This document shows positions 16,448 through 50,826 of a stretch of DNA of 64,000 bases, one piece after another. This stretch comes from a virus, in the IMG/VR virus record IMGVR_UViG_3300021518_000005, positions 1 to 64,000 of that record. One strand, 5' to 3'. The notes beneath the pieces were generated by a model. That model was not told the DNA's origin, did not search any database, and worked only from the letters and a program-made list of their open reading frames with translations. Within the stretch, counting starts at the first letter, position 1. The number at the start of each line of letters is the position of its first letter. Made by a program: the position numbers and the translations under genes.

Positions 16448-16476
16448 ATCTTACCATGGCGGTAAGAACTTGTCAA
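16448..16476 (-). promoter_or_regulatory. Early promoter with palindromic operator
   Basis: TTGACA-17 nt-TAAGAT containing CTTACC-N5-GGTAAG. Confidence 0.8.
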
Positions 16477-27836: not shown

Positions 27837-28129
27837 GCCCTTTGTGAAGGCGTAAACCCTACTTGTACCGTGCAATAAGCCCGAACGCAGTAGCGATACC
27901 GACACTCATAGTTAATACAACGACCCATGCCATAGATACATCAACATAAACGCCAATAACGAGCGCCAGCATGCCAGATGCAAGTACTGCCAACAACCCG
28001 TACATCACTTTGTTTGTCATGTCCATATTTCCTGTAATAAAAAAGGAGGTATACCGCGTGCATCTTACCACAGTGGTACGAGGCATGTCAACATTGCCAC
28101 CGTCTGAGACAAACGAGTGCAAGCAAAAG

Positions 28130-28600
28130 ACCGTAACACCCCCTGCGTAAATCCACACCTACCCCTGTGCGTTTCCACACCCCCCCTGTGGATTCCCGCA
28201 CCCGCATTGCAAAGCCGTAAATCGCCAATTACACGGTATCATACGTATCTCTTCATGCCGTGAGAATGGCAGTATTCCGCGTCTCAATGCGAAGTGTGGA
28301 AACGCGCACCACCCCTGTGGAAATACACAGGTATTTCGACCATTTCGTCGGAAATTTCGACCATTTCGTCGGAAATTTCGACCATTTCGTCGGTAGAAGT
28401 AATCGGGGTTTGCGCCATTTCAAAGCCGTAAAATGCCACAAAATTTTAAGGGAATCATATACATGAATCATATACATGAATCATATACATTTTTTGCATT
28501 TTTTTTGCGCATTTTTTTTGCGCATTTTTTTTGCGGCACTAGCGCGCTGCGCTTGCTCGCTCACTGCGTTCGCGCTGCCCCAATTTCGCTTCGCTCTTTT
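28130..28600. repeat. Putative iteron-type replication origin
   Basis: CACC..CCCTG(T/C)G repeats (28135-28320); three tandem 21-mers atttcgaccatttcgtcggaa (28333-28393); three tandem AT-rich 13-mers gaatcatatacat (28452-28490); phased T-tracts (28490-28532). Confidence 0.6.
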
Positions 28601-28897: not shown

Positions 28898-29089
28898 GTG
28901 ATGATGGAAGAGAAATTGAAAACGGGTGAAGCGGCTCGATTGATCGGAGTCCACATTCAAACGATACGACGATGGGCAGCTGCGGGACTGATTAAGACAT
29001 TGACATTACCAAGCGGGCAACGGTTGGTCTATCGTTCGGAGGTGGAACGCATTGTAGGAAAACGTGAGCATGTGGAGAAGGCATTGTGA
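28898..29089 (+). CDS. MerR-like/excisionase HTH protein
   Basis: LKTGEAARLIGVHIQTIRRWAAAGLI...LPSGQR. Confidence 0.8.
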   Translation: MMMEEKLKTGEAARLIGVHIQTIRRWAAAGLIKTLTLPSGQRLVYRSEVERIVGKREHVEKAL

Positions 29090-29874
29090 ACGCCATTCGA
29101 CAAGACTATGCACAAATTGAACGCATTATGCTCCTTACGCGCAAGTTAGGGCCGGTTGAGAAAATTGTATGGAATGCCATGCGGTTATACGATTGGAGTG
29201 TGGGAAGTGTACATCCTTCGCTTGAAACGCTTTGTGAGGATATTAATGCCTGCAATCCTGACGATCTGGTTGATATTGAAACGGTTCGCCGAGCGACCAA
29301 GAAACTTGAAAAAGTAGGACTTATCACACAAGAAACGATCAAGCGCAGCGGCCAGCGATCATTTACGCGCTACATCATGAACGATATTCCCGCAAGTATC
29401 ACAGGCGGCGAACCTATTCCGCTGGTGTATCGAGAAGGTGGATGGTCTAATACCTCAAATAAACAAAAGCAGGAGCAACAGCAACCACGAGCGCAAGAGG
29501 CATCGCAGCAGAGCGTTACTGCTGTACCTGCCGCAAAAGAAGACTCGCTATGTGTAAGAACGTTCCGTGAAAGCTTGCAAGACATCGGTCTACCACGTCA
29601 TCTACATGACGATCAGAAGCGCCTCATTGACTCGGTAGAACCCGACGAAGTCCTGGCGTACACTATTCCACAGATCTGCGATGCATATGACGTTACTGAT
29701 GTGGATGTATTCATCGATCTGTATGTCGGTGGCAAGGATGCAGTAGATTGGTTTCTGGCTACTCGTTCGCAAAGAAAAAGCCCGGATGCTGCCAACATCC
29801 AGGCTTCCAAGTACTACCACGCTGCACAAGCACAAACACAAGCACACTCTTTAGACGATGAGCCTCCATTTTAA
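29086..29874 (+). CDS. HTH replication-initiator-like protein
   Basis: HPSLETLC...TVRRATKKLEKVGLI winged HTH; acidic DDEPPF tail; adjacent to the iteron region. Confidence 0.6.
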   Translation: MNAIRQDYAQIERIMLLTRKLGPVEKIVWNAMRLYDWSVGSVHPSLETLCEDINACNPDDLVDIETVRRATKKLEKVGLITQETIKRSGQRSFTRYIMNDIPASITGGEPIPLVYREGGWSNTSNKQKQEQQQPRAQEASQQSVTAVPAAKEDSLCVRTFRESLQDIGLPRHLHDDQKRLIDSVEPDEVLAYTIPQICDAYDVTDVDVFIDLYVGGKDAVDWFLATRSQRKSPDAANIQASKYYHAAQAQTQAHSLDDEPPF

Positions 29875-30133: not shown

Positions 30134-30162
30134 TTGACATTATCTTACCGATATGGTAAGAT
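30134..30162 (+). promoter_or_regulatory. Promoter with palindromic operator
   Basis: TTGACA TTAT CTTACC GATAT GGTAAG AT on the plus strand. Confidence 0.8.
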
Positions 30163-31218
30163 GTTTGTGTAAGAACAAGCGCACACGAAAGGACACGGCA
30201 ATGTACACGAAAGAAATCAAGTACGACAACATCACCAAGGACTTTGCCGCCTATCTCAATGGCTCACTTGTCGGCTTCTATCCTGATTACCAATCAGCCG
30301 AACAAGCACTTGACGCTCTCGTATATAAGGCGCTAACCGTGGAGGTGCTGTAATGAGCAAGGAACTGTGCAATTGGTACTACGACTTCACCGAGGATAAG
30401 CAGTACACCAGCGATGATGAAGGCTGCTTAGTGCAGCTCTGCTGCAAACATGCACGCGATCCATTAGCTGCTGGTGACATTCAGTGGGCTTCACGCGGCG
30501 ATGAGAGTACCAGCTGTGAGCATCACGGCTGTACGGCACACAATAACCCACAGGGGCGATGAACTTAGCGAGCGCGGTAGTTGCGGCTGCCGCGCTTGAT
30601 ACCAAACAGGAAAAACAGCAATGTACAAAATTGGCGACTCACTCCTGACATGGGACGGTGTTGTATTCACAGTCAAAGGCGTGCAACGCGCTGAACAGGT
30701 ATATCGCGGCGATAGTGGTATCTGGTGCCACGAAAGCGATATTGTGTGCAAACTGGACATGCCAGCTTCACAGCATCGCGAAGCACTTGAAAGAGAAATG
30801 CGGATGGCTCTGGGCTGGCTGTGGGCAAAAGGGCAGCACGGTCTAGTCAAGCGCATTGAGAGTAACAAAGGTGTAGAGTTTCTTCGCCAAGTTGATCACC
30901 TGATTGATATTCTTGATCACGTTCCTGCTCAGTGGAACATGCCGATTAATTGGCCGAAGTCGTTACGCAAGCTCATTATGATGGAGGAACCTGTATGTAC
31001 GCCGTAGGTGATCATGTCCTTGGTATCGACTACACCGCGTTTACCATTAGCCGCGTCGAGAGCGACGACAAGGAGGTAACGTATCATCGCATGGGATCGC
31101 GCATGCGGTATACGGCGAATGTACACAAAGGGCATTTTGACTATGCTTGAGCAGATTCGGCATCCCACAGCTAGGATGCACTATAACTGGATACAAGCAC
31201 TTTGGGGGGATGTGCAGC

Positions 31219-31737
31219 GTGCCTAGCACGCCAACGCACGACAGAATAACGATTATCGCCGGGGCGCTCCTTGCTCCGGCGTATTCGTTTGCGCAGCAGC
31301 ATGCAGGCAATGAACATGCTGCAACATTGGGCCTTATCGCTGGCACCAGTTGTATTGTTTCAGGACTATGGTTCAGTCCTGATCTTGACCTTGACAGCTG
31401 GATACATCATCGTTGGGGCGCGCTAGCAGCACTATGGAAGCCATACAAACAGCTTGTACCGCATCGCCACTGGGTAAGTCATGGCTTTGTTATCGGCGCG
31501 CTGCTCCGGCTTGTGTATATTGCGTGCATCCTGTTGATTGTAGGGTGCCTGTACAGCCTTGCTGTAACACGAGGTCTTGCATTGGCGGGGATGTGGGTAC
31601 ACGAAATTGCAGCCGCCGCTGTACGGCACTCTGATGCGTTTTCCGCTGCGCTTTTTGGCTTCATTATTGGCAGTGACGCACATATTGCAGCCGACGTTAT
31701 TAGTTCCTCGTGGAAGCGCCGTAAGCGATTGACATGA
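31219..31737 (+). CDS. DUF2227-like metal-binding membrane protein
   Basis: PS..THDRIT, FSPDLD, RWG....LW.PY....HR..VSHG and H..AD motifs. Confidence 0.75.
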   Translation: MPSTPTHDRITIIAGALLAPAYSFAQQHAGNEHAATLGLIAGTSCIVSGLWFSPDLDLDSWIHHRWGALAALWKPYKQLVPHRHWVSHGFVIGALLRLVYIACILLIVGCLYSLAVTRGLALAGMWVHEIAAAAVRHSDAFSAALFGFIIGSDAHIAADVISSSWKRRKRLT

Positions 31738-31791
31738 TGCTTCGTGTTGTGATATGATGTCTAGAAATGATGTCAGCAAGGGAGGTGATAC

Positions 31792-32790
31792 ATGGCAGCA
31801 TCGCAATCGAGTCAAGCACTCAGTCTGTTCACGTTCGACACAAGCATTTTATCGACGGCAGAAGCACAGCACGCGCATAAGATCGGACTATTGACAGCCA
31901 AAAGTGAGGCCCTACACAGCGCACAGCGCCTTGTAGGGGTGGGTCGGCCTTTGCTCTTTGGCGTCCTTCTCGTAAGTTTTGTCCATCTCTGGCACACAGT
32001 AGCATCAATTAAGCCAGGAGAAGTGCAGGATTTAGAACTGTGGGGATGGATCTATCACGTTGCAGCTGCGCTTCTTATCCTCTCGATTGATGCGACTGCT
32101 GCCTATCTGGTATCGGTTCGTGGTACAGCTCGTTATGCTGGTGACACGCGCCCTAATCATGTGGTCATCTTTTTTTACGTGCTTACAGGCATGCTCAATT
32201 TGCTGTTTGTGATGCGCTACAGTCCAGGACTGCCCGATATGGTTGGGGATTTTTTGCCGTTCCTGTCATTTGCAACAGGATTGTTACTTGCTCCACTTAT
32301 TCCGGTGAGCGTGTGGGCCATCGAGCACGCACGGCAAACAGCGGATGCGGCTCGACTTGCGTTACTCGTTGAAGTGACAACATTGAAAGGCATCATCCAA
32401 GCATCGAAAAACAAGGAGAAAGAGCAACACGAGATGAGTGTAAACGAACTTGAGGCATTGCGCGCTGAATTGCAGGCTGCACGGGAAAATGCAGCGCAAC
32501 TGAATCGTGAGAAGCAGCAGATTATGATCGAGTTACAGGCAGAGCATAATCGTGTTGTAGCGCAACAGCAACACGCACCGCTGATTACAACACGCTTACC
32601 AGTGGAGCGCGGGAAGCCATCCAAGCGCGATGCCGTGATTGCACTATTCGAGCGATACAATCATCAAGGCATATGGGTTGATGGATGGAGCGCAAAGCGC
32701 ATCGCCGATGAAGTATCGACCGATGCGGAGCCGGTAACAGCGCAGCGTGTCAGTGAGTACATTAGCAAATATAAGAAAGTGAGCGGATAA
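31792..32790 (+). CDS. Spd-like membrane protein (4 TM + coiled coil + C-terminal HTH)
   Basis: Four hydrophobic helices, a coiled coil (ELEALRAELQAARENAAQLNRE) and a terminal HTH (WSAKRIADEV...TAQRVSEYISKYKK); GGAGG RBS. Confidence 0.55.
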   Translation: MAASQSSQALSLFTFDTSILSTAEAQHAHKIGLLTAKSEALHSAQRLVGVGRPLLFGVLLVSFVHLWHTVASIKPGEVQDLELWGWIYHVAAALLILSIDATAAYLVSVRGTARYAGDTRPNHVVIFFYVLTGMLNLLFVMRYSPGLPDMVGDFLPFLSFATGLLLAPLIPVSVWAIEHARQTADAARLALLVEVTTLKGIIQASKNKEKEQHEMSVNELEALRAELQAARENAAQLNREKQQIMIELQAEHNRVVAQQQHAPLITTRLPVERGKPSKRDAVIALFERYNHQGIWVDGWSAKRIADEVSTDAEPVTAQRVSEYISKYKKVSG

Positions 32791-32990
32791 TGAGACATAT
32801 CGTATTCTGGTTTGTTGTCGTGACATTGTGCCTCATCACACATGTGTTTGGTATCGAATTAACACATACATATCTCTTAGGTGATCGGCAGGATATGTAC
32901 ATGCTGGCAGTTACGATATGGTTTACGCTTTTTGTGTGTATCATTGTACCGTTGTATGTATGGAGTGCTCATGAACGCACCAGAGAATAA
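32790..32990 (+). CDS. Small two-TM membrane protein
   Basis: Two hydrophobic helices; coupled to the upstream gene. Confidence 0.55.
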   Translation: MRHIVFWFVVVTLCLITHVFGIELTHTYLLGDRQDMYMLAVTIWFTLFVCIIVPLYVWSAHERTRE

Positions 32991-33609
32991 GGTTCAAACG
33001 CCCCCACATGGTTCAGGATCGCCAGTCATGCATGGCCCACGGGTTGCGCCTGTACGGGGCCACCAAGGGCAGCAGGCAACAAAACAGGCAGTAAAGCAGC
33101 AACCTGCTACCGCAGCGCCGCCTATACCGAATATGGATATTGCGAAGTGGAGCGGCGCGGTATTCTGGCTGTTTGGATTGACGCTCACGACCGCATTCAT
33201 ACACGGTCTTGCATTCGATATTCTTGTTAATCAATGGTATCGCTGGCCTGTAGAGATTGTGGTATCACTTGCACTTCAAGTGGCACTGACAAAGTTGGAG
33301 AGCCCGATCTGGCGCGGCTATGTGATTCACTTGCCCGGATTACTAGGGCTTGGCATTGACGTGTATATCAATCTGGCTGGTGCTTTTGCAATTGCCGATG
33401 GCATTGCAACATCTGAATCAACACGAGTGCTAGCGGGCTGGTACGGCTGGAATATGAATGAAATCAAGGCTGGAAACGGCTTTATGCTCACCACGGTATG
33501 TATTGCGGTGTTGATCGCCGCTCTGCCCGAGCTGTTATGGACACTGGATAAACGAGTAGCACAGTTTAAGCATGCGGTTCGTGGAAGGATGTATCAGAAG
33601 GAGGACTAA
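32971..33609 (+). CDS. Four-TM membrane protein
   Basis: GGAG RBS, Pro/Gln-rich N-terminus, four TM segments. Confidence 0.65.
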   Translation: MNAPENKVQTPPHGSGSPVMHGPRVAPVRGHQGQQATKQAVKQQPATAAPPIPNMDIAKWSGAVFWLFGLTLTTAFIHGLAFDILVNQWYRWPVEIVVSLALQVALTKLESPIWRGYVIHLPGLLGLGIDVYINLAGAFAIADGIATSESTRVLAGWYGWNMNEIKAGNGFMLTTVCIAVLIAALPELLWTLDKRVAQFKHAVRGRMYQKED

Positions 33610-33631
33610 TACACAAGCGACACGGCAACAT

Positions 33632-33663
33632 CGAGACGGGCATTATCGCCCGTCTCTTTTTTT
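33632..33663 (+). terminator. Intrinsic terminator
   Basis: gagacgggc-attatc-gcccgtctc followed by a T run. Confidence 0.7.
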
Positions 33664-33745
33664 GTGTGTACTCTTGACAAAAATGGGAATATGCTTACAC
33701 TAAAAAGAGCGATTTGTCAAGTGGATATATTGAAAGGGATGTTGT

Positions 33746-35431
33746 ATGGGCCTAGAAGGATTTGTTGTTATATTTTTCTTTGTACTGTTTATTGTGCTGG
33801 TTATTCGCTCGCTTTTGCGGCCTGAGACCGCACACAGCGAATACAGCCGTGTAACGCCTACTACAATGCCTGTAGAGCGCGTTGACGTGGCTGAATATGG
33901 CAATCCAGCACTAGCCATCCTTGCATGGCTTTGGGCTGTATTTCGTATCGGTCTGTTCCATCTACAGCGGCGTCGGGAGAGGCCAGCACCAGCGATTACA
34001 AGCCAGGAATCTGTGTATGTTGTACAAGAGCGTGAATCTATGCCACGAGAGCGTGAGGCTGCATCAGAAATCCGGCAGCCGCAGGAAGTAAAGCAACCAG
34101 CACATCAGGCATCAGAAGGCCGTGTAAAGGACGTAGATACACGCGCAAACACCAAGGATCGCATGGCGCAGTTGCCAGCACATGCGCCCGATCCTGTTGA
34201 TGACACGCGGGATCGCTTGAATATTCCTGTGCTGTTTGACGGCACACAGTATCTCTATCATCGCATGGGCAGCGGCCACAAAGCTGTTCTTGGCACCACA
34301 AATGGAGGGAAGGGTAACTTTCTTCGCTACTATGCGCTTATGTCGCTCCTAGCAGGGCCTGAGAACATGCGGCTTGTCGTGTTCGATGCAAAGGGCGGTG
34401 CTGATTACTGGTGGATTCATCAGATCGATCATGCCGAACTGTATTTTACAGGCCCTGAAATACTCGATGAAGAAAAACCGATTGATGCACTTGAGGAAGG
34501 TCTCAAGGTGTATGTGCGTTTGATGTTGGAGCGCGGCCAAGCATTACAAGCCGCGCACGTAGAGAAAATTGATCTGTATAATGAAAAAGTAAGAAATGGA
34601 AGTGTAAATGGTTTTGAATGGCCGTACATTGTGGTTATTGTTGATGAAATTGCAGACTTCAGTAAAGAGGCAAAGAGTCTTGTCTCGACACTGACACGCA
34701 TGGGCCGCGCTACTGGTTTTGATATTCTCGTAGCAACGCAGCATGCTACTGTTGAGGCGATGAGCACACAGATCAGTCGCAACCTGACAAACCGTTTTGC
34801 TTTCCGCCTGAACAGCTCCGAGGGTACAGCCGTCGCCCTAGCGCGCACCAGCAATGATTACGGCAAGTATGAACCGAGCGTAATTGATCGGCCTGGTGTC
34901 GCCGTGTGGCGCGGCATGGGCGGCAATGAACAAATGGGTCTTGTTCCATTTGTTGATCCGCTGATGGATGGCTTGCTTGCACAGTTGACAAGCAAGTATG
35001 GCAAGTCAAGTCAAGCAAGTATGGCAAGTCAAGTACTTGCACAAGCAAGTGCAAAAACAAGTGTCGTGGCAAGTCGAAAACAAGTACTTGACTTGCACGG
35101 GCAAGGCGAAGCAAGTGACACACTTGACGACGATGCAAGTGCATACTTGTCTGAAGTACTTACCATACAAACGACTGATGCAAGTCAAGCAATCAGTCAA
35201 GGCAAGTCAAGGCAAGCTCCAGGCAAGTCAGAAGGAAATACAAAAACAAGTCGATGGCAAGGACTTGTTAACCAAGAAACACTTGCACAAGCAAGAGAGA
35301 CTGTGCAAGAGATGGGTGATAAGGTAGGCGTCGTGGAACTGGCTCAGGCATTGTATGGTAAAAGCACGGGTATCTATTTTTATGCAGCACAAGAACTTCT
35401 TGCATTGTTGGAAGGAGAAAAATTAACTTAA
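33746..35431 (+). CDS. FtsK/SpoIIIE (TraB-like) membrane-anchored DNA translocase
   Basis: N-terminal TM segments; Walker A GTTNGGKG; FDAKGG; Walker B IVVIVDE; RMGRATG..ILVATQ; RFAF; C-terminal gamma/wHTH-like helices. Confidence 0.85.
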   Translation: MGLEGFVVIFFFVLFIVLVIRSLLRPETAHSEYSRVTPTTMPVERVDVAEYGNPALAILAWLWAVFRIGLFHLQRRRERPAPAITSQESVYVVQERESMPREREAASEIRQPQEVKQPAHQASEGRVKDVDTRANTKDRMAQLPAHAPDPVDDTRDRLNIPVLFDGTQYLYHRMGSGHKAVLGTTNGGKGNFLRYYALMSLLAGPENMRLVVFDAKGGADYWWIHQIDHAELYFTGPEILDEEKPIDALEEGLKVYVRLMLERGQALQAAHVEKIDLYNEKVRNGSVNGFEWPYIVVIVDEIADFSKEAKSLVSTLTRMGRATGFDILVATQHATVEAMSTQISRNLTNRFAFRLNSSEGTAVALARTSNDYGKYEPSVIDRPGVAVWRGMGGNEQMGLVPFVDPLMDGLLAQLTSKYGKSSQASMASQVLAQASAKTSVVASRKQVLDLHGQGEASDTLDDDASAYLSEVLTIQTTDASQAISQGKSRQAPGKSEGNTKTSRWQGLVNQETLAQARETVQEMGDKVGVVELAQALYGKSTGIYFYAAQELLALLEGEKLT

Positions 35432-35930
35432 GTTTTTTCTGGAATGCTCAAAAAGGCCCTGAAATAGCCCATTTTGGGCGACTTAAGCCCCGCGAGATGA
35501 AACTTAAGTTTTTCTTTCGGGGCTTTCTTTTGGCTTTGTAGTCATTAAAATCGAGGCTTAAGTTTTTTATTAGGCGACTTAAGTTTTCCATGCGCTTTTC
35601 AAAAACTTAAGTCGCTTGTGGGCAAAAACTTAAGTTTTTGCAGACCATTTCAATCGGGCATAATCGTGTGCAGCAGACAAGAATCTCATGCTTGTACTTG
35701 ACTTGGCAAAAAACAAGTAGGGCAATGACTTGCACACTTGATACGCAATGCAAGTCAAACATTCTACTGGAACACTTGACTTGTTTTTCATCGAGCAATT
35801 CAGGCAAGTCAACTACTCATAAAGGCAAGTACAAAAACAAGTGAGGTGGCAAGTCCGGGCAAATCAAGTAGACAAGTCAAGCCTTGTTTCTTGACTTGCC
35901 AAAACAAGTACTTGACTTGTCTACTTGTCT
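34974..35930. repeat. Dense tripartite array of CAAGT/ACTTG and CTTAAG motifs
   Basis: More than 20 CAAGT/ACTTG copies at about 34980-35290, seven CTTAAG palindromes at about 35425-35640, and about 20 more CAAGT/ACTTG copies at about 35690-35930 (counted by eye). Confidence 0.85.
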
Positions 35931-36252
35931 AACGAGACAAGGCGCGTAACCTGCACAAGCGATATACTTTGTACTCCATGTCGCGCTTGCCTCGATTGCA
36001 ACTTGCACAGCACGCTACCACATTGGCCTCAGTATATCCGTGTCGATTATTCACACGATCAATACCTTGATATACAACGGTGTTGATTTTGTATTGCGGC
36101 TGGCAGTACACGCCAGATGGAGCACAGCCGCAGTAGTGGCACAGCTGCTGAATGAGTGTATCGAACACATCCATATCAAGCTCGAATGACAGATCACGGC
36201 GCTTTGCGTCATACTTGTAACGGCGGAAAAGATGTTTGACGACTGGCAGCAT
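35929..36252 (-). CDS. HNH-like endonuclease
   Basis: CHYCG...GIDRVNN..GY...NVVACCASCN..K. Confidence 0.75.
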   Translation of the reverse strand: MLPVVKHLFRRYKYDAKRRDLSFELDMDVFDTLIQQLCHYCGCAPSGVYCQPQYKINTVVYQGIDRVNNRHGYTEANVVACCASCNRGKRDMEYKVYRLCRLRALSR

Positions 36253-36291
36253 GGTAATTGTCCTTGCTCGATATGTATGTTCCCTGACACA

Positions 36292-36409
36292 ATCTTACCA
36301 TATCGGTAAGATACTTGTCTAGTGACAAAATACTCACATGATCAACCAAAACTCTTTACACTTGGCATTTCCTGAAGAAGTTTGACATTTCTTACCGCTA
36401 TGGTATACT
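36292..36409. promoter_or_regulatory. Divergent operator-bearing promoters
   Basis: Minus strand: CTTACC-N5-GGTAAG at 36294-36310. Plus strand: TTGACA(36382)-16 nt-TATACT(36404) containing CTTACC-N5-GGTATA, upstream of the ncRNA cluster. Confidence 0.75.
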
Positions 36410-36477
36410 GTGGGTGAGCCGAACGCAAGACTAGTCCCGAGGGTGCAGCGAGGTCATACGTTGATTAGTAGGCCCAT

Positions 36478-36567
36478 GGGAGCGCAGTAGGTTTCGATAG
36501 GGCGCGATGAGCACGAAAGCGCACAGCTCCGCTCTAGACGCGAGTGCAACTCTCGCCGCTTCCACCA
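36478..36567 (+). ncRNA. tmRNA-like RNA consisting of the tRNA-like domain only
   Basis: Acceptor stem GGGAGCG/CGCTTCC with G3.U70; encoded ACCA end; stemless D-loop (GGTTTCGA); P2a TAGGGCG/CGCTCTA; GAC linker; T-arm GCGAG-TGCAACT-CTCGC. Confidence 0.75.
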
Positions 36568-36573
36568 GTTAGG

Positions 36574-37007
36574 GCATACTAGGCATGTCTAGGTTAACCG
36601 CTTTGAATGGCACCGTGCCTCTCTGTCATTCAACCTGTATGGAGTAAGCAGGAACAAAGGGATGTAAACGCCTTGCTGTAGGTTCCTTGTGGGCCATGAG
36701 TAGAACGGATAAGACCGCCGTTGGAATGACGGCGCGGGATCGGTAATCCGCACTCGTAATCTCTGCCGATCTGCTGACAAGTGGAGAACTTGTCACTGTA
36801 CAGGTAATGATCGGTGCAGCGCGGTAAAAAAACAGCTATGTGTGCATGTGGGTGAGGCTGTCGGTGTTGGGCCGTAGGGAGTACTATATAACGATAGCGT
36901 TGTATAACCTGATCGTATCCGTCGCTAATCCAACTAGGCGAGGCGCATGCACACACCGCGCATTCACGGCGACACCTGCCAAGCATTCTAGATACTGCAA
37001 GTGGTGC
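36574..37007 (+). ncRNA. Putative large structured ncRNA (~430 nt)
   Basis: No credible ORF; many hairpins plus long-range pairings that close the 5' and 3' ends; lies between the tmRNA-like RNA and a tRNA. Confidence 0.55.
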
Positions 37008-37036
37008 GACACGTAGCGGAGAGACGCTACTCTTGC

Positions 37037-37126
37037 GGGCTTAAAGCGTAGTAGGTAAACTGCGTGCCGACTGATCAGCGGCCCTGTGTAAGACACGGGT
37101 AGAGGGTTCGAGTCCTTCAAAGCCCA
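37037..37126 (+). tRNA. Atypical tRNA-like gene (GAT anticodon, long variable arm)
   Basis: Acceptor GGGCTT/AAGCCC; extended D-stem; anticodon arm GCCG..CTGATCA..CGGC; variable arm CCTGTG/CACGGG; T-arm GAGGG-TTCGAGT-CCTTC. Confidence 0.6.
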
Positions 37127-37169
37127 ACAATATTGTTATTATAAAAATCAAAGGAGTGACTGTATACGT

Positions 37170-37475
37170 ATGGCTGATGTGGTGGCTGCATTTGGGGATT
37201 TTGGTGTTTTTAGCCATGCCGCGCCAAATATGGCCGGTACTGTTCGTGAGCGTGATCTGGAATTTGTCGATGCAACGGTGTCGTTATCGAATGTCTCCCC
37301 GTCAAGTTCGATTGATCTTACTAATCCTGAGCTACTGACTTTCAAGGTTGCCAAAGATGAAGTGTTTGGTACGCTTTCTGCACAGTTGACGGTGCTGCTC
37401 ACGGGAGAGGAACAAAGAGAATTGAAGGCGATTGCAGAACGCATTGAGCGGCGTGTGAAGGCGCTTATCAGGTAA
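37170..37475 (+). CDS. Hypothetical protein
   Basis: AAGGAG RBS upstream; plausible amino-acid composition. Confidence 0.55.
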   Translation: MADVVAAFGDFGVFSHAAPNMAGTVRERDLEFVDATVSLSNVSPSSSIDLTNPELLTFKVAKDEVFGTLSAQLTVLLTGEEQRELKAIAERIERRVKALIR

Positions 37476-37567: not shown

Positions 37568-39142
37568 CTGAATCGCACTGGGATTGCTGGTGCTGTCGCC
37601 GCCGTTATTGTTACTGTTGTTATTGTTCTCCCGCATGGTTCCTCGACTGATGCGCCTCCGCCTGTATTTGTGACAGCTCACGTCATAACGGCTACAGCAG
37701 AATTGACCACTACACATCACGAAGATCCTACAAACACGCCAGAAGCGCCTACAGCCACCGAAACAGCTACGCTAGAGCCAACACACACCACTGAACCTAC
37801 AATCCCTCCTGGGCCGTCTGAGAAACCTACGGAAGTCGTTACAAGCACTGCTACGACCACGACAACAAATACCGTAGATTCGACAGCAACATCTACGGCT
37901 GCCGCAACTTTTACACCCACGTCAGAAGCCTCTATAACGCCCACAGAAACACCTACAGCGAGCGCCACGGCCACTACGACGCCCACGCCTACGGCGGTTC
38001 CTACAGCCACTCCTGTGGTGTTCCTGGAAACGTTTGACGGATTGCCATCACAACCATTAGCCTTCTCAAGCAGCCAATGGGATATTATGGCGCACAGCCG
38101 TGATCCGTTGTATCGACAAGTTCCTGAGCCAATGGATGCGCAACATGACGGTGCAACATGCGATGTCCATGGCGCGCACACGATCACAACCTACACACAA
38201 ACCGCGTTCATCTGCCGTAATCATCTCATGACGGCTATTAAGGGAACTGACTACGCGATTGTGTACCTTGCGCCTAATGCCATGCTCGATTGGTCGCAAA
38301 ACACAGCTACACTGCGTTTTGACGTTTCAACCATGCGAACGACAAGCCGCGATTGGTGGGATATTTGGATCACGCCATGGGGCGATGTGTTGTCGTATCC
38401 CTCTGATGGATCGTTTCCCGATGGGAATGGCGAGCCGCGCAACGCCATCCACATTCGCATGAATCAGTTCAACGGCAAGACCACGTTTAACGTCAATCAA
38501 GTCGTGAATTATGTCTCATCGCCGGTGCCTGGTTCCATTGTCGGTGGCCGCGTCTACGAGAATGTATTAACACCGGATTATGTGCGGCGCGACACGTTTG
38601 AGCTACGCCTATCGAGCACACACATCTCGTTTTGCATGCCCGACTATACTCACTGTTGGGCTGATAATCTACCGTTGGCTACGTCGCTCGACTGGAATAG
38701 CGGCGTGGTACAGATCGGTCATCACTCCTACAATCCGCTGAAGGGCTGCATCGCGGGGCGTACACCATGTCAGCCAAATACCTGGCATTGGGATAATGTC
38801 CGCATGGAGCCAGCATTGCCATTCCAAATCATTCGCAGCGCGCCGCGTGCCGCATCGCTCACAATTACGAACGACACATTGACACTTGAGCGGCCTGCAC
38901 CAGCAGGCGCTATCGTTCGATTTTTGGCTATCGGGAATGCTATCGAGGTGTCATTCGACGGTGGCAATACATGGCAACCAGCCGTCAAGCGTGAGCAGGA
39001 AAACAATCAGCCGGAACGGTTCAGCTCGTATTGGATGCCGATACCGGAAGGCACCACAGCAATCAAGGTTCGCGGCCAACGTTGGACAAGCAGCAGCGCA
39101 GGTGATTGGTGGGTTCACTCGCTCAGTGTGTGGGCGCGCTAG
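37568..39142 (+). CDS. Secreted or membrane-anchored protein with Thr/Pro linker and beta-rich C-terminal domain
   Basis: Frame is open from CTG 37568, 10 nt after AAGGAG, giving an N-terminal hydrophobic segment (NRTGIAGAVAAVIVTVVIVL); long PT/TA linker; FLETFDG...HWDNV domain. Confidence 0.7.
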   Translation: MNRTGIAGAVAAVIVTVVIVLPHGSSTDAPPPVFVTAHVITATAELTTTHHEDPTNTPEAPTATETATLEPTHTTEPTIPPGPSEKPTEVVTSTATTTTTNTVDSTATSTAAATFTPTSEASITPTETPTASATATTTPTPTAVPTATPVVFLETFDGLPSQPLAFSSSQWDIMAHSRDPLYRQVPEPMDAQHDGATCDVHGAHTITTYTQTAFICRNHLMTAIKGTDYAIVYLAPNAMLDWSQNTATLRFDVSTMRTTSRDWWDIWITPWGDVLSYPSDGSFPDGNGEPRNAIHIRMNQFNGKTTFNVNQVVNYVSSPVPGSIVGGRVYENVLTPDYVRRDTFELRLSSTHISFCMPDYTHCWADNLPLATSLDWNSGVVQIGHHSYNPLKGCIAGRTPCQPNTWHWDNVRMEPALPFQIIRSAPRAASLTITNDTLTLERPAPAGAIVRFLAIGNAIEVSFDGGNTWQPAVKREQENNQPERFSSYWMPIPEGTTAIKVRGQRWTSSSAGDWWVHSLSVWAR

Positions 39143-39382: not shown

Positions 39383-40022
39383 CAAGACCTTACTTGCAGG
39401 CTAACACATGCCACCCGTTAGGGCTGCAATGCCAGTCCACAATCTCATTTTGCTCGTTTCGGAGCCGAAATCCATGCTCAGGATCTAACGCAATTGCATT
39501 GCCAGCAAGTGCATGCCATTCAACCCGTACATCACCATGGTCTTCATGCCAAATTGCAACTACATAGAAGTTCAGAAACGACCACGCGATGAGTTCACCT
39601 CCGAGCGTGTCCTCTCTTGGCATTCCGTGATTACCCGGCAATATCCATTCCCCGCGCTCAAAATGTTGTAGTCTCATAGTGCTTTCTCACAAGTATATGC
39701 AAGTTGCTCACGCATTGACTCTTCAACATAAGCCATGGCAAAGCTCAAATCTACATTTTCCCCGTATGTGTCCATGTCGTTGATCGTGTCCTGATCAAAC
39801 TGAGGGATACTCAGCAGGATACCAGGACTATAATACTGATTTCCAATCATACCATCCCATAGCACCCTGAACGTTCCATCCTCACACAATTCAACCGTGT
39901 AACCACTACCGTTAAACCCTGCCGTTGTTGAGGATTTTACCGCTTCCTCAAATGTCTTCCCACCATCATCGGCAATAAAGTGCTCAAACGCCTGTTGGAC
40001 AGTCATAGTATTCTCCCATGTA

Positions 40023-40102
40023 CAATTGCTTCGACCTGAACACAGTATAAATCAAACAGCTTGGTTGTTGAATGATAAATACCTGATAAAGAGGTGATAA
40101 TT
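40023..40102. repeat. Direct repeat copy 1 (promoter cassette)
   Basis: Near-identical to 41313-41392; contains a minus-strand TATACT. Confidence 0.85.
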
Positions 40103-40587: not shown

Positions 40588-41312
40588 CCGTGCCCTGTTG
40601 GGCCGTCTAGATCTTCCTCTTCCTGTATTGCCTTGGCATGTGCTGCAAGGCGTGCATTGGTCGCCGCTTTCGCCGCTTCCTTGTCGGCTTGCACCTCTTG
40701 CTCCATGGCGATGACGCGACGACGATGAATTATTAGCTCGATTGCACGCTCACCTTGTTCATAAGCCGAAATATCAAAATGCGAATCGCCGTAATCAAAT
40801 TGCGTTTTGGGTTGAACGCCATACGTCGCGCACAACTCCTCGTAGCGCTTGCGGTTTGGTGTTTCGCGCTTGATTACCTCCATGATCTCGACAATACGCC
40901 AATACGCTTTTTGCGCCCCTGCTTCGGTGCTGAATACCTCGTTGGATTCTGGCTGTACGTGTGGTGCCGTGTACGTGTATCCGCTTTCACATAGTCTAAT
41001 ATCACCAAACATGATCGTGTTTACTCCTTGATATTGGTTCCCATTGTTCCACCACAGCAGTTGCTGTAGCCACCAGCACCGTTGCCTCCGTCGCATCCGC
41101 ATACAGAACAATCGGTGCCATTATCATAGGCACACGTTGAGCAAAAGAATTTACCAATTGCGTATCCGTCTCCACGAATGTCCTCACCGCAGGATGCACA
41201 GAATGCATCCATATAATTTTCGTAACCTTTAACTGCGATACGTTGGGCTGCCGACAATTGGGAAAGCTCTTGAAAACGATTGGCGTCCATGTCTTTTACT
41301 CCTTGATGAGTT

Positions 41313-41392
41313 CAATTGCTTCGACCTGAACACAGTATAAATCAAACAACTTGATTGTTGAATGATAAATACCTGATATTTAGGTGATAATT
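41313..41392. repeat. Direct repeat copy 2 (promoter cassette)
   Basis: Near-identical to 40023-40102. Confidence 0.85.
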
Positions 41393-42497
41393 ACTCAGAT
41401 GTGTCCTGCAACTTCCTAGCCACATCCTCCAATGCGGCGCGCTCATCAGCGCTGTACGAATGGATGTACACGCGCTCCGTGATGCTGGTAGTGCTATGGC
41501 CGAGTACATCACGCGCCACTGTCGAGGCATACCCGCTTTGGGCGATAAGCGATGCTACCGCATGGCGAAGATCATGTAATCGGATCGATTGCGGCAGCCC
41601 GATTCGCTTCAAGTCGGCCTTGAACGACCGCCAGAGATTATGCGGGTTGTACGGTGTGCCAACTTCAGATGGAAATACAAGTTGATGATCTTTCCATCCT
41701 GGTGCATCGCGCTCCTCATTTTGCACAGCCCTATGCACCTCAAGTGTTTGTACAAGCCACGGCGCAAGCGGAAGCGTTCTAACACCGCTCTCGGTTTTTG
41801 CATCAGCAATATGCAGCGTGCCAGCTTGCATATCAACATCGGCCCACTTCAGCGCGATTAATTCGCCACGTCGAAGGCCGAGTGATGCGCCAATGACATA
41901 GAGTGCATAGCGCCGTGTACCGCGTGCGCCATCGAGTAGTTGTCGGATATGCTCAATGGATACCGGCTGCACTTTGTACTTTCTTGGTTTTGGCACATCA
42001 ACATGTTCAGCCACGTTCCGTTGCACCATTTCGAGACGTACACCGTCGTTGAGTGCTCGACTCAAAACACCATGCGCGTATTCGATGGTACGAGTACTCA
42101 AGAGTGCGTCACGTTTCTTAGAACGCTTGTCACGCAGTTCTGAGAGCCAATGCTGTATATCTTGTGGCCGGAGCTTTACAAGTTTGATATGGCCGATATG
42201 CGGCTCGATATGCAGTCGAGACATATCACGGTAGCTTTCGTAGGTTCGCGCCTTGCCTGGTTTGACCGTATGCTCTAGCCAATACGCCATGTACTGCGTG
42301 ACTGTCATTTTATTGTCGATTGGCTCAGAGCCACGATTAAGTTCAGCCAAGATATTCGCTTGCCAGGTTGCAACTTCCTTGCGTGTCTTGCCGTATTTCC
42401 ACTTGCGTTTCCCATTGCCAAGTGATACAGCTGCGTACCATGTCCCGTCTTTGCGCTGCCCAATAGTGCCTTCATTTTGACCGCGTTTCTTAGGCAT
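41391..42497 (-). CDS. int: Tyrosine integrase
   Basis: N-terminal RGQNEGTI arm-binding domain; GLRRGE, KT, HDLRH, LGHS and catalytic Tyr (TERVY). Confidence 0.95.
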   Translation of the reverse strand: MPKKRGQNEGTIGQRKDGTWYAAVSLGNGKRKWKYGKTRKEVATWQANILAELNRGSEPIDNKMTVTQYMAYWLEHTVKPGKARTYESYRDMSRLHIEPHIGHIKLVKLRPQDIQHWLSELRDKRSKKRDALLSTRTIEYAHGVLSRALNDGVRLEMVQRNVAEHVDVPKPRKYKVQPVSIEHIRQLLDGARGTRRYALYVIGASLGLRRGELIALKWADVDMQAGTLHIADAKTESGVRTLPLAPWLVQTLEVHRAVQNEERDAPGWKDHQLVFPSEVGTPYNPHNLWRSFKADLKRIGLPQSIRLHDLRHAVASLIAQSGYASTVARDVLGHSTTSITERVYIHSYSADERAALEDVARKLQDTSE

Positions 42498-48117: not shown

Positions 48118-50826
48118 CTAGCACGCGGTATACTCACAGGCTGTACACTTTGTACAGCCCTCCGATTTCATGAGACTAAATTGCTTGCGCGGGCATGGGC
48201 ATAGCATCCCCGTAGCCTTGTGTGGCGTTTTAGCTACTGGTGTCTCTGCCTCGACTGCCCGATATGTGGTGCTGTACTCCGCTAGCACCTTGCCTATTGC
48301 ATCCGGCACACTAGCTACCCGATTCAGCCCAAAACCAATGCTAGTACTTCCGCCGATTCCACGCAATTGCTCGCTAATCAAGTCAACACCAATGCCACAA
48401 CGCAGCGCAAGCGACACGAGACGGCCTAGCGCCTCGGTGAAAGCACTCAAGTCACTTCCTGCTCTTCCGATAACTGCAAACGTCTCGACGGGCGCTCCAT
48501 CCATCTCTGTCACAAACAGATGGAGATCACCTAATGGTGTTCTTACGCGATGCGCGGTCGCTGGTAGCTCATCAGGCACATCAATCGGCCATGACCGTAG
48601 CTCCTGTACCTCGACAATTTCCGGCCATTCTGCTGATTCAGTACTGCTTGTTGTGTTGCCTGTTGATAACACCTGCCCTGAGCGTGAGCCGTCTCGATAG
48701 ACCGTAATACCCTTACATCCGAGCCGATATGCTAGCTCGTATGCCTGTACAACATCCTCAATGGTAGCTGATTGCGGCGCGTTAATTGTTTTACTGATGG
48801 CACTATCAACATGGCGCTGAAATGCGGCCTGCATGCGTACATGCCACGACGGATCAATCTCGTTTGCTGTTCGGAATAGGCGTTGCACGGCTGCCGGAAT
48901 TTCAGGATGTTGAATACTTCCCGTGGCTGCAATGCGCTCCATTAACTCATCAGTGTACCATCCCTCCCGTTGAGCGCGTGCCACAAAATCAGCATGCACA
49001 TCAGGAAGCTGCATACCGGCCTGGTTACGCATAAACGCCACGGCAAATAATGGTTCGACACCACCTGAGCAGCCAGCAATGATACTGATACTGCCAGTCG
49101 GTGCAACAGTCGTCACATTACAATGCCGCATCTCGATATGTGGGTGAATGCGCCGCCCTTGACTATCTCTTGCACATGTCTCATCCGGCCCCCAGGTGCT
49201 TTCGATCCATTCAGGAAACACGTTGCGTTCATCGGCAAGATCGCTACTGGCGGCATGTGCTATAGTCTGAATACGACTCATCACATAATCAGCAAGTTCA
49301 AGCGCATCCTCACTATCATACGGAATATTGAGTTTAATCAAGGCGTCGGCCCAACCCATCACACCAAGGCCAATGCGCCGAATGCTCTGTGCCAAACTTG
49401 TAATAGCTGGCAGTGGATAGGTATTTGCGTCAATGACATTATCGAGGAAGCGAACGGCAATACGTACTGTATCCTCCAATCCTGTCACGTCTATCGAGCG
49501 CGTATCCTCGTCAACAAATGCACTGATATTGATACTGCCAAGATTACATACATCATTTGCAAGAAGCGCTTGCTCACCGCAATTATGTACCAAAAACCCT
49601 GTCACCAAGGAGCCATTATGGGCTTTCTTGTCACATATAAAGAAATTATGCGCCTCCTCCACAGTGCCATCATAAACATCGGCGCAACCATCAGGAATGA
49701 CCGACATAACAACATGGTTGCTATTGCATTGCTCAATAAAAGATCTTTCACTGCCAAATAAACGCGCTAAAACCTTACGACCGGGCAGGTTTTCTTTACG
49801 TGCGTGCGCAAGCCATTCGGTTAATGTAATAGGCCGACCAAGAACATTTGATAGTTTCACGCCCTGATGTAGTACATCATCGGCCTGAACATCCTTGTAT
49901 TGGCTATTCATTGCACCTAACGCATGAAACTGCTTGTGTTCCTTGCTTCCCATAACCGTCAAATTATCCAGTCTGTTGTCTGTAAAGTCACCATTGACGT
50001 GATGAACAACCTGATCAATTGATAGAGTTTCCCCTGTAACGTACTCCATGAGTAAACGATAATGGGGACGGAACACGCTCAAGCCATTGCGCACCATCAT
50101 ATCTCCACGACGTGCGCCTTGCTTAATGAAATGAGGGTAGAGTCGATCACCAACGCAAAGATCACTCGCCTTCTTCCATGTACCATCACGCAACATAAAC
50201 AAATGATCGGGCGTACATTGTACAAAATCTAAATCACGACCAACAGTAGTGCCTCCGCGTTTGTCATACGTTACACGTACAAGTGGCTTGTTTTTGCCTG
50301 TTTTGTGAATATTGTACATGCGTCGAACAACAGTTTTGTCGTTCAACAGACAGTACACCAAAGGTTCTGTGCCAACAAGATCAACAAATGGCTTTGGCCC
50401 TTCCACAGTTGAAACAAGTGTGTCGCCCGTAAAGCAAGGATTACACGCCTCGTAACGTCCGAGATGCGGCACGGGATTGTAGTAGTTTACTCTATCAATA
50501 AAGAATAATCCTGGTTCACCCGTTTCCCATGCACATTGTGCAATAAGACTAAATACAAGACGCGCTTGAATGATAGCAGGATAGCCCGCTTGAACCAAGA
50601 CATCACCTGTAAGTGGATGAGTCATTGTCTCGTTTGGTACATGCACATCGCCTGTACGCGGATTCATTAGCATGTACGGCGCATCATCATATACGGCCTG
50701 CATAAAATCATCAGTGATAGCCACTGAAATGTTGAAATTCGTCAGCTTTGTTGTGTCGCGCTTGCATGTGATAAACCTCAGAATATCAGGATGTGTACAA
50801 TGCAGGATCGCCATGTTCGCCCCACG
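48118..50826 (-). CDS. nrdJ: Class II (B12-dependent) ribonucleotide reductase, exon 2 (contains an intein)
   Basis: RGANM, WETGEPGL, NP[intein]CGEQ, CNLGSIN, RRIGLGVMG, VAPTGS, ISKTIN, KGITVYRDGSR; C-terminal TSCPD-like domain and Zn-finger-like tail. Confidence 0.92.
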   Translation of the reverse strand, partial: RGANMAILHCTHPDILRFITCKRDTTKLTNFNISVAITDDFMQAVYDDAPYMLMNPRTGDVHVPNETMTHPLTGDVLVQAGYPAIIQARLVFSLIAQCAWETGEPGLFFIDRVNYYNPVPHLGRYEACNPCFTGDTLVSTVEGPKPFVDLVGTEPLVYCLLNDKTVVRRMYNIHKTGKNKPLVRVTYDKRGGTTVGRDLDFVQCTPDHLFMLRDGTWKKASDLCVGDRLYPHFIKQGARRGDMMVRNGLSVFRPHYRLLMEYVTGETLSIDQVVHHVNGDFTDNRLDNLTVMGSKEHKQFHALGAMNSQYKDVQADDVLHQGVKLSNVLGRPITLTEWLAHARKENLPGRKVLARLFGSERSFIEQCNSNHVVMSVIPDGCADVYDGTVEEAHNFFICDKKAHNGSLVTGFLVHNCGEQALLANDVCNLGSINISAFVDEDTRSIDVTGLEDTVRIAVRFLDNVIDANTYPLPAITSLAQSIRRIGLGVMGWADALIKLNIPYDSEDALELADYVMSRIQTIAHAASSDLADERNVFPEWIESTWGPDETCARDSQGRRIHPHIEMRHCNVTTVAPTGSISIIAGCSGGVEPLFAVAFMRNQAGMQLPDVHADFVARAQREGWYTDELMERIAATGSIQHPEIPAAVQRLFRTANEIDPSWHVRMQAAFQRHVDSAISKTINAPQSATIEDVVQAYELAYRLGCKGITVYRDGSRSGQVLSTGNTTSSTESAEWPEIVEVQELRSWPIDVPDELPATAHRVRTPLGDLHLFVTEMDGAPVETFAVIGRAGSDLSAFTEALGRLVSLALRCGIGVDLISEQLRGIGGSTSIGFGLNRVASVPDAIGKVLAEYSTTYRAVEAETPVAKTPHKATGMLCPCPRKQFSLMKSEGCTKCTACEYTAC
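49582..50436 (-). mobile_element. Intein (285 aa) with HNH endonuclease, at the RNR active-site NP|CGE
   Basis: Starts CFTGDT; block B CTPDHLF; HNH motif VHHVNGDFTDNRLDNL; block F VYDGTV..AHNF; ends VHN followed by +1 Cys. Confidence 0.93.

Follow-up and report, generated by a model that had tools for sequence, protein, structure and literature searches.

Does a tailed phage that has its own packaging machinery also carry a second device for moving double-stranded DNA (dsDNA) across a membrane? The question is raised by four genes at positions 31792-35431 of IMG/VR virus record IMGVR_UViG_3300021518_000005, which encode three small membrane proteins and a membrane-anchored FtsK/SpoIIIE-type ATPase, and by the dense arrays of short repeats that lie in and after the ATPase gene. 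The analysed stretch, called the window here, comprises positions 1-64000 of this linear record of 83,227 bases, the completeness of which is estimated at 85%. An initial annotation had likened the locus to the modules of Streptomyces plasmids in which a single FtsK-like motor, TraB, binds short repeats (clt) and acts together with Spd membrane proteins, and had suggested that the phage may pass its genome from cell to cell without making virions.

We read the module as a functional analogue of TraB/clt/Spd and not as a member of those families, and we assign this reading a probability of about 0.4. What is directly established is how the proteins are built from domains, that the motor has an FtsK-type fold in which the catalytic motifs are intact, that one relative keeps the gene order, that the arrays are real and where they lie, and that the module belongs to a phage which encodes a terminase separately. 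It is the combination of the motor, the coupled membrane operon, the arrays, the replication/excision-type block and the separate terminase that points to a membrane DNA-translocation device which would load on phage DNA.

The FtsK/SpoIIIE-type ATPase

The ATPase gene (33746-35431, plus strand) encodes 561 amino acids (aa) and was characterized with Pfam, PHROGs, an AlphaFold2 (AF2) model, Foldseek and a phylogenetic tree. The protein matches Pfam FtsK_SpoIIIE (PF01580) with 39.3 bits (cut-off 24) and phrog_1358, 'FtsK/SpoIIIE-like', at 4e-24. Hydrophobic segments are found near the N terminus at residues 6-24 and 55-73 on the Kyte-Doolittle scale, and the AF2 model (mean predicted local distance difference test score, pLDDT, 76.9) has transmembrane (TM) helices at 3-24 and 54-78. 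A linker leads to the motor, which spans about 130-420 with pLDDT >90; residues 444-501 are disordered (pLDDT <50), and a three-helix domain is modelled confidently at 502-560. The two N-terminal TM helices, the Pfam score and the intact Walker motifs all agree with the membrane-anchored FtsK/SpoIIIE ATPase that had been proposed.

When 1.84 billion representative sequences were searched in full with HMMER, a family of 35 proteins was obtained at E<=1e-30, with lengths of 400-630 aa and 35-45% identity across the motor. All 34 relatives match PF01580, and none of them departs from the Walker A (G183..GKGN191) or Walker B (D300 E301) motif. The same plan, i.e. an N-terminal hydrophobic helix, a linker, the motor, a second linker and a small C-terminal helical segment, recurs in the 12 family sequences that were read and the 10 that were aligned (alignment A2). 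Each of the 35 proteins has one ATPase domain, compared with 2-7 domains in EccC-like and giant proteins; the type VII secretion ATPases EccC/EssC are characterized by three in tandem. The giants (P0039, P0050 and similar, 2300-3000 aa, with 5-7 tandem FtsK-like ATPase domains) rank next after the family and cluster with the EccC-like proteins in the tree.

When the family profile was compared with PDB sequences, FtsK came first (2.2e-30), followed by TcpA, the coupling protein of pCW3 (9e-28), and EccC (6.6e-26). Foldseek with the AF2 model returned the dsDNA-bound FtsK motor at 1.7e-17 (about 290-300 aligned columns) and TcpA at 2.2e-16. NCBIfam models gave weak local matches (EccCa 47 bits, TraB 28.3 bits, FtsK 26.5 bits). 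On the family core profile, cellular FtsK rows scored 92-118 bits (two shorter cellular rows, L049 and L116, about 80), FtsK-like proteins from IMG/VR 67-104 bits, and EccC-like proteins together with the multi-domain giants 78-97 bits.

A tree of the core was calculated from 57 rows, including 14 of the 35 family members, in a quick IQ-TREE run under LG+G4; the midpoint root served for drawing only. The family rows form one clade (14 out of 14, SH-aLRT 99), which is distinct from TraB, the EccC-like proteins and a group of cellular FtsK and IMG/VR proteins, the order among the groups being unsettled. The protein is thus seen outside the protein-secretion EccC group and has its best solved matches in the FtsK translocase and TcpA, in accordance with the initial assignment to the DNA translocases. 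Judged by profile and tree, the ATPase is a member of the FtsK/SpoIIIE superfamily in a previously unnamed clade, and not a TraB.

A winged helix-turn-helix (HTH)-like domain had been predicted at the C terminus. A small and confidently modelled three-helix domain (502-560) does exist, but it has no wing strands in the AF2 model, and its lone family signal, a winged-helix match to Pfam wH_RNase_II (E 0.0046, 17.5 bits), is below the cut-off of 27. The closest subgroup of relatives conserves the pattern LAxxLY...FYAA in this domain, and its size, fold class and position suggest that it may bind DNA.

Partner membrane proteins

Three plus-strand genes, overlapping start to stop, precede the ATPase gene. 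The first (31792-32790) encodes a 332-aa protein with four TM segments within residues 47-172 (Kyte-Doolittle segments and AF2). The second (32790-32990) is an open reading frame for a 66-aa protein with two Kyte-Doolittle TM segments, the start of which overlaps the previous stop (ATGA). The third (32971-33609) encodes a 212-aa protein with three Kyte-Doolittle TM segments after a Pro/Gln/Ala-rich N terminus; its start may be at 32881 (242 aa), at 32971 (212 aa) or perhaps at 33028, and the version of the gene caller has 193 aa. With 4, 2 and 3 hydrophobic segments found in these frames, the predicted series of three membrane proteins followed by an ATPase was recovered as described.

The AF2 model of the 332-aa protein (mean pLDDT 70.8, from an alignment of 7 rows) consists of a TM bundle, a single helix at 169-258 and three short C-terminal helices at 278-331. 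It thus contains the four TM segments and the long helix of the initial annotation, whereas the coiled coil and the HTH named there are still inferences, since the pLDDT of the C-terminal helices is only about 50-60. The N-terminal 200 aa define a small family with 6 relatives at 36-48% identity (alignment A3, 7 proteins). The C-terminal module varies within this family: the phage protein and P0012 have a three-helix module, whereas four other members end in a zinc ribbon (CxxC...CxxC). A membrane domain to which different nucleic-acid-binding modules can be attached would fit this variation. The 332-aa protein matched no family in Pfam, PHROG, NCBIfam or PADLOC, and a profile search of IMG/VR with the 4-TM family found no loci. 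Prediction of a complex of the 4-TM protein (residues 1-262), the 3-TM protein and the ATPase N terminus (residues 1-130) scored 0.02 (mark 0.32), which speaks neither for nor against binding.

Conservation of the module

One homologous locus was compared, a 3.5-kb metagenome contig (L128) that encodes the ATPase relative P0015 (39% identity, 2e-58). The gene order is the same: the C-terminal part of a 4-TM homologue (E 6e-5), a 3-TM homologue at 520-1059 (37% identity, E 2e-29, BLASTP) and the ATPase. A counterpart of the 66-aa gene was not seen in this contig. The membrane genes therefore accompany the ATPase in one out of one locus, as the initial annotation had expected of related loci. 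We note that single-locus synteny evidence is thin either way. In our reading the ATPase belongs to a single conserved module with the 4-TM and 3-TM proteins, to which this phage adds the 2-TM protein.

Other searches found more distant proteins. A word search with the ATPase returned the protein itself and four cellular FtsK proteins (E 4e-5 to 8e-4), without close relatives, and the same search with the 3-TM protein returned itself only. In IMG/VR the single ATPase sequence found no relatives; with an alignment (A1) as query, 46 loci were found, all at 20-32% identity. Among the 16 of these (from L002-L047) that were inspected, low-G+C DNA and a gene of about 200 aa after the FtsK-like gene were seen, and in most the FtsK-like gene lies 1-2 kb from the contig end. 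The inspected loci look like coupling-protein modules of integrative and conjugative or mobilizable elements (ICE/IME) at the edges of prophage calls, not like members of the ATPase family. The best 80 of 136 loci from a search of genome contigs were dominated by cellular FtsK, with none useful for synteny, and a metagenome search gave 5 loci, L128 alone belonging to the family. The closest feature clusters in Protein Atlas (0.83-0.87; viral or Chloroflexota hypothetical proteins) are under the 0.9 level and are leads only.

The repeat arrays

The region 34970-35950 contains 42 CAAGT/ACTTG sites, where 2.59 are expected from the rest of the 83-kb record (Poisson 1.3e-35; about 16-fold). The core extends to approximately RRCAAGTM, and T never follows directly after it (0 out of 42 sites). 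Moreover, 7 of the record's 12 CTTAAG sites fall within 35420-35640, against an expectation of 0.013 (1.5e-17).

The sites are arranged in three groups. Array A (34989-35295) consists of 23 pentamers within codons 415-515 of the ATPase gene. Array B (35425-35640) consists of 7 CTTAAG palindromes, up to AAAACTTAAGTTTT, in the gap between convergent genes, with spacings of 55, 21, 54, 21, 28 and 23 bp; folded as single-stranded DNA it has a z of -4.7. Array C (35696-35927) has 19 pentamers in both orientations and ends at the stop codon of the convergent gene. That gene (35929-36252, minus strand; 107 aa, HNH/endonuclease VII-like, phrog_3322 at 1e-12) converges on the arrays, and its stop touches the last pentamers.

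A repeat array overlapping the terminal domain had been noted at the outset. The array is real, but its in-gene part lies mainly on the disordered linker, to which codons 415-515 approximately correspond, and the overlap with the terminal domain is limited to the first few codons. Because array A falls on a disordered linker, the DNA motif can be carried without harm to the fold. In the protein the array reads as an ASQ/KQV-rich peptide, and in the alternative frame as a QV-rich one.

The phage and its host

The window encodes a tape measure protein, Dit, tail fibres and an endolysin, as well as a ribonucleotide reductase, a DnaB-like helicase, a primase, a sliding clamp and a tyrosine integrase (41391-42497, minus strand; all PHROGs annotation). 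Past the window end, the same record encodes the terminase large subunit, the portal, a head-morphogenesis protein and the major head protein. Since tail, integrase, terminase, portal and capsid genes are all present, the record is classified by its gene content as a temperate phage of the siphovirus type that encodes a packaging motor itself, and the tailed-phage identity claimed at the outset is upheld. A packaging role for the ATPase of the module was considered and ruled out, because the phage has a terminase large subunit and a portal of its own.

The closest portal among cultured phages is about 40% identical and comes from Streptomyces phages. In IMG/VR the portal found a single locus at 24% identity, and the phage is therefore one without close kin in that database. 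The G+C content is 45-51% (48%), so the host is not a streptomycete and not an actinomycete. The only taxonomic pointer obtained for the host is P0010, a homologue of the 332-aa 4-TM protein with 50% identity, which is named from 'Chloroflexi bacterium AL-W' (phylum Chloroflexota). The Chloroflexota host of the initial annotation is plausible given this homologue, and this host may be filamentous.

Organization of the 28.1-35.9 kb block

The module is part of a plus-strand block at 28.1-35.9 kb that is flanked on both sides by minus-strand gene blocks. Its order, i.e. origin-like repeats, a Xis-like gene, a Rep-like gene, membrane genes, motor and repeat arrays, makes the block plasmid-like in layout. 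The ten genes of 28.9-39.1 kb were scanned with Pfam, PHROGs and NCBIfam, and 30 other genes with PHROGs alone; the other annotated genes of the record are phage genes.

At the start of the block, a candidate replication origin (28150-28540) lies between divergent gene blocks, just upstream of the Xis-like and Rep-like genes. Its tandem and direct repeats include perfect 21-bp iterons (unit x2.9, 100% matches, Tandem Repeats Finder), a perfect 13-bp repeat, GAATCATATACAT (x3, 100%), a second, T-rich 13-bp repeat, GCATTTTTTTTGC (x3.1, 100%), and a CCACACCCCCCCTGTG-like repeat (x2.4). Iterons together with T-rich 13-mers resemble a replication origin. The Xis-like gene (28898-29089, plus strand) encodes a 63-aa MerR/excisionase-type HTH protein (Pfam MerR 38.1 bits, cut-off 28.2; HTH_17 31.5 bits, cut-off 27; phrog_66 excisionase/regulator 6.5e-8) with a match to the NCBIfam BldC subfamily (31 bits) under the cut-off of 77. 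It is followed by a putative, HTH_36-like replication initiator (29086-29874, plus strand), which matches PHROG replication-initiation families at 2e-6 to 4e-4 and Pfam HTH_36 with 19.2 bits, under the cut-off of 25; the Rep assignment is accordingly a weak one.

Small genes and a DUF2227 gene lie behind an operator-bearing promoter at 30134-30162. The DUF2227 membrane/metal-binding protein (31147-31737, plus strand; Pfam 1.5e-36, three hydrophobic segments) is encoded directly upstream of the module. A sigma-70-like promoter, TTGACA-18-TATGAT (31729-31758, plus strand; 11/12, a consensus match only), precedes the membrane-protein operon, which is closed by a terminator-like hairpin of 9 pairs (7 G-C) with a T run (33633-33656, plus strand). 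A second sigma-70-like promoter from the consensus scan, TTGACA-16-TACACT (33674-33701, plus strand), precedes the ATPase gene.

The palindrome TCTTACC-N5-GGTAAGA has 10 matches throughout the phage (0.06 expected), with exact copies at 16449, 19858, 20782, 25109, 27809, 30143 and 36293 and copies with 1-2 mismatches at 28063, 44146 and 51856. It overlaps the promoter-like sites at 30134-30162, 28091-28062 and 36284-36312; the palindrome search found no copy at the membrane-operon and ATPase promoters. One exact copy of this phage-wide operator (30143-30161) lies within the block, and a direct-repeat search found no att (attachment-site)-like repeats bounding it, which argues that the block is native to the phage. 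The G+C content of the block equals that of its flanks (0.47-0.51), and no second integrase was found inside it with Pfam and PHROGs.

Comparison with known systems

Like the TraB/TraA-clt-Spd systems (pSVH1, pIJ101, pWTY27), the module has only one FtsK-type motor, which is anchored in the membrane and ends in a small C-terminal domain. In both, small membrane proteins are encoded by overlapping genes in an adjoining operon, a 4-TM protein with a coiled-coil-like part among them, and rep and xis-type genes are adjacent. Spd genes are described as translationally coupled (PMC4447253). The order of two TM segments, motor and small C-terminal domain is also that of TraB (PMC4447253) and of TraA of pWTY27, in which a soluble remainder after two TM segments binds clt (PMC3583192). 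The short repeats that begin within the 3' end of the motor gene and continue past it recall, as a pattern only, the clt of pWTY27, which comprises 16 bp within traA and 159 bp after it and is bound by TM-less TraA (PMC3583192).

There are differences as well. The known clt sites are 5- to 9-bp direct and inverted repeats, a few to nine in number, whereas the phage array has 42+7 sites over about 950 bp, an order of magnitude more than the clt sites described in PMC3583192. Four TM segments and a coiled-coil part beside a motor, as in SpdB2, are a generic feature; unlike SpdB2, the phage protein is not a DUF2637 protein and has its long helix after the TM domain, while the coiled coil of SpdB2 is N-terminal (PMC4447253). 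The motor differs from TraB in its score (28 vs 800 bits), its clade and a terminal domain without detectable homology to the TraB winged helix. In contrast to the Streptomyces systems, a GntR-type TraR/Kor regulator was not found in the phage, and the host is not an actinomycete (48% G+C).

Transfer functions on phage genomes have been discussed before. The element pZL12 is reportedly a Streptomyces plasmid-phage (Zhong et al. 2010, J Bacteriol 192:3747). It resembles the present phage in that a transfer function of the tra type is added to the genome of a tailed phage; in pZL12 this function has reportedly been characterized by experiment. The transfer of pZL12 is described as requiring its main tra gene together with two genes beside it (PMC3583192). 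It also has ParA/ParB (PMC4487206), which were not found among the scanned genes of the present phage. Thoma et al. 2015 cite phiC31 as encoding an SpdB2 homologue, VWB is likewise listed, and the idea of phage transfer is in print for actinomycetes. DUF2637 was matched by 0 out of 8 scanned proteins of phiC31 (L135, NC_001978), and in a search of phage records with the ATPase no Streptomyces phage was found at E<=1e-5. As a side observation, the GntR regulator gp26 of phiC31 adjoins the unassigned gp23 and gp25. Phage-borne transfer modules thus find a precedent in the literature in pZL12, and for phiC31 they have been the subject of speculation in print; compared with these, what is new here is the combination of a non-actinomycete, probably Chloroflexota, phage, a non-TraB ATPase clade, non-DUF2637 partners and a linker-overprinted array.

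Other FtsK-type proteins were also compared. The phrog_1358 and phrog_3551 proteins of Bacillus, Mycobacterium and Listeria phages have an FtsK-type core, and their records give no role. The ATPase differs from them in its own clade, its N- and C-terminal parts and its partner genes, and does not exceed about 30% identity to them where 36-48% of the query can be aligned. Cellular FtsK/SpoIIIE, the best solved motor fold, likewise combines a membrane anchor, a linker, a motor and a small C-terminal domain; unlike cellular FtsK with its orienting polar sequences (KOPS), the phage protein has no gamma homology and is much shorter, and its motifs are clustered in one array without strand polarity. 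TcpA of Clostridium perfringens pCW3 (PDB 6O1W), a TM-anchored FtsK-like conjugation ATPase, is the second-best match in both sequence and fold. TcpA acts with a multi-protein transfer apparatus and a relaxase; in contrast, no relaxase, VirB4 or VirD4-type family was found among the 10 proteins of 28.9-39.1 kb (Pfam, PHROGs, NCBIfam). In PADLOC-DB 2.0 the ATPase core alone had matches (SspH C-terminal domain 5.4e-21, mad8, HerA); none of the other 9 proteins matched, and no defence system was found.

Evaluation of the proposed function

If the module is a functional analogue of TraB/clt/Spd, the ATPase would assemble as a ring in the cytoplasmic membrane, use the CAAGT/CTTAAG arrays (~950 bp), which start inside its own gene and extend beyond it, as the place to load on dsDNA of the phage, and pump the phage genome across the membrane or a septum into the adjoining cell of a filament. 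The partner membrane proteins would build or gate the passage. We infer ring formation, loading on the arrays, and the direction and target of transport; spread from cell to cell without virions is conjecture throughout. A bolder version would have phages of filamentous non-actinomycetes independently build a TraB/clt/Spd-like apparatus from another FtsK branch and unrelated membrane proteins, with the pentamer array in the linker codons as the loading site and naked dsDNA spreading along the filament without capsids or lysis; we consider this version doubtful.

A number of results weigh against the proposed analogy. The ATPase reaches 28.3 and 29 bits with the NCBIfam model plasmid_TraB (NF041214), the cut-off of which is 800, bona fide TraB proteins have the lowest scores of all groups on the family core profile (16-28 bits), and the three TraB rows form a separate long branch in the core tree. 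Membership in the TraB family, as initially considered, is therefore rejected on account of the score far under the cut-off and the separate clade. For comparison, true TraB was found above the cut-off in 2 out of 201 sampled actinomycete genomes (989-998 bits), and hhalign gave 91.9% for the ATPase family against TraB, over the ATPase core only. TM-anchored FtsK-like ATPases without a known role are, moreover, widespread (256 phage records and 95 BFVD models at E<=0.001). The terminal domain had been compared with the winged helices of FtsK-gamma and of the TraB C terminus, and this homology was not supported: hhalign gave 0.25% for the former and 0.31% for the latter, the TraB value coming from small alignments of 4 and 3 rows. 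A Pfam HTH family was absent from 33 out of 34 ATPase family members, and the terminal domain had no significant PDB match (best E 0.058). Outside the arrays the motif has no genome-wide, KOPS-like strand polarity. The contig L128 contains no repeat array in its ATPase gene or in the 465 nt after it, where a terminator and the next promoter are found instead, so that the expected co-occurrence of repeats and ATPase fails in one out of one locus. The host assignment, furthermore, comes from one named homologue, and conjugation of this type is not known to us in Chloroflexota, although no search aimed at it was made.

The same is true of the partner proteins. DUF2637 (PF10935) was matched by 0 out of 7 members of the 4-TM family at E<=1, and hhalign gave 0.24% for this family against a DUF2637 protein (113 bits) that is encoded beside a diverged TraB-like gene located for comparison (L146). 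In the actinomycete genome concerned (G029), a Pycsar-effector-type TM protein (PycTM, 5.7e-14) is encoded a few genes from this TraB-like/DUF2637 pair (L146 3255-3788, minus strand). With tblastn (E<=1) the 4-TM family matched none of 72,556 plasmids and none of 50,697 phage records, and Foldseek (E<=0.001) likewise returned nothing for it from BFVD. The SpdB2/DUF2637 membership that the initial annotation had named for checking is thus not supported. These negatives exclude membership, not analogy, since Spd proteins are described as poorly conserved between plasmids (PMC4170104).

Could the motor serve the inheritance of the phage and not its transfer? Some other protein would then bind the arrays, which would act like a centromere or in regulation, and the motor, like cellular FtsK, would free replicating or episomal phage DNA from closing septa and distribute copies to the daughters, with no intercellular transfer. 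We consider this unlikely, even though the ATPase core is nearer to cellular FtsK (92-118 bits) than to TraB (16-28 bits), FtsK is the top Foldseek match, and the array B palindromes lie about two helical turns apart, which is typical for dimeric HTH binding. Candidate binders can be named as well: the MerR/BldC-like 63-aa protein, which has a sub-threshold match to a type described as binding direct-repeat arrays (BldC, PMC5859096), and the C-terminal domain of the 4-TM protein, whose family has swappable modules (three-helix or zinc ribbon). However, no ParA, ParB or other partition family was found in the 10 genes scanned with Pfam, PHROGs and NCBIfam or in the 30 others scanned with PHROGs, an XerCD/dif-type partner and a polar motif distribution are lacking, and the conserved partner membrane proteins would be left without a role. 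The integrase also counts against inheritance as the purpose, because a phage that has one need not persist as an episome. It is less likely again that the membrane proteins and the pump are made in the lysogen from their own promoters and block or expel competing phage or plasmid DNA, with the arrays unrelated. Both units do have sigma-70-like promoters lacking the operator palindrome, the membrane operon with its terminator has a moron-like layout, the PHROGs category is 'moron, auxiliary metabolic gene and host takeover', and SspH, a defence protein, has an FtsK-like domain that is similar to the core of the ATPase (PADLOC 5.4e-21). This SspH match is, however, limited to the generic ATPase core; no partner protein was matched by the PADLOC models, the block adjoins replication genes and not a prophage end, and the extreme arrays abutting the ATPase gene would be left unexplained.

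Two further explanations concern the arrays and the block as such. The arrays may be the replication origin of the phage, i.e. iterons around an easily melted centre, and their adjacency to the ATPase gene incidental. Two iteron-like arrays do flank a T-run-rich palindromic centre in the gap between convergent genes, and a Rep-like gene lies 5 kb upstream. This is nevertheless improbable: the repeats at 28150-28540 are a more conventional candidate directly upstream of that gene, and a 5-bp core present 42 times in mixed orientation and with variable spacing is unlike the usual iterons of 17-22 bp. Finally, the block could be a foreign insertion like a plasmid or an actinomycete integrative and conjugative element (AICE), or an assembly chimera, which would make it silent on the phage's own biology. 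The plasmid-like gene order on the strand opposite to both flanks fits this, but the base composition is that of the flanks, an exact copy of the phage-wide operator lies inside, and bounding att-like repeats and a second integrase were not found in the block; we regard such an origin as very improbable. A translocation device analogous to TraB/clt/Spd remains the reading that we prefer.

Other features of the record

An 83-nt direct repeat (93% identical) at 40020-40102 and 41310-41392 flanks two small minus-strand genes and touches the 3' end of the integrase gene; it is possibly att-related or a duplicated regulatory region. The ribonucleotide reductase large subunit (48118-50829, minus strand; 903 aa) also matches HNH endonuclease families at residues ~251-319, which suggests an intein or an inserted homing endonuclease. 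The gene at 37670-39142, which separates tRNA-like genes from the integrase block, encodes a 490-aa protein that is rich in Thr and Pro in its N-terminal third; it has no match in Pfam, PHROG, NCBIfam or PADLOC. In an Rfam scan of 34800-37300 the sole entry reaching its gathering score was a transfer-messenger RNA (tmRNA)-like gene at 36478-36567.

Significance

The module consists of a motor of 561 aa, membrane partners numbering two or three and a defined 950-bp site, and is thus a compact and testable set for asking by what route motors of the FtsK type come to load at specific sequences. It also illustrates clearly that a dense DNA motif can be written over the codons of a disordered linker. 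Even if the module served segregation or exclusion instead, it would still provide a role for the widespread unexplained FtsK-like genes of phages. If the analogy with TraB/clt/Spd is true, dsDNA conjugation by a single FtsK-like motor would not be limited to Actinobacteria, and a temperate phage would gain a second, capsid-less route of spread that is invisible to plaque assays and to receptor-based resistance. Were the bolder version of independent construction in filamentous hosts to hold, capsid-free septal spread would be a convergent, general strategy for viruses of multicellular bacteria.

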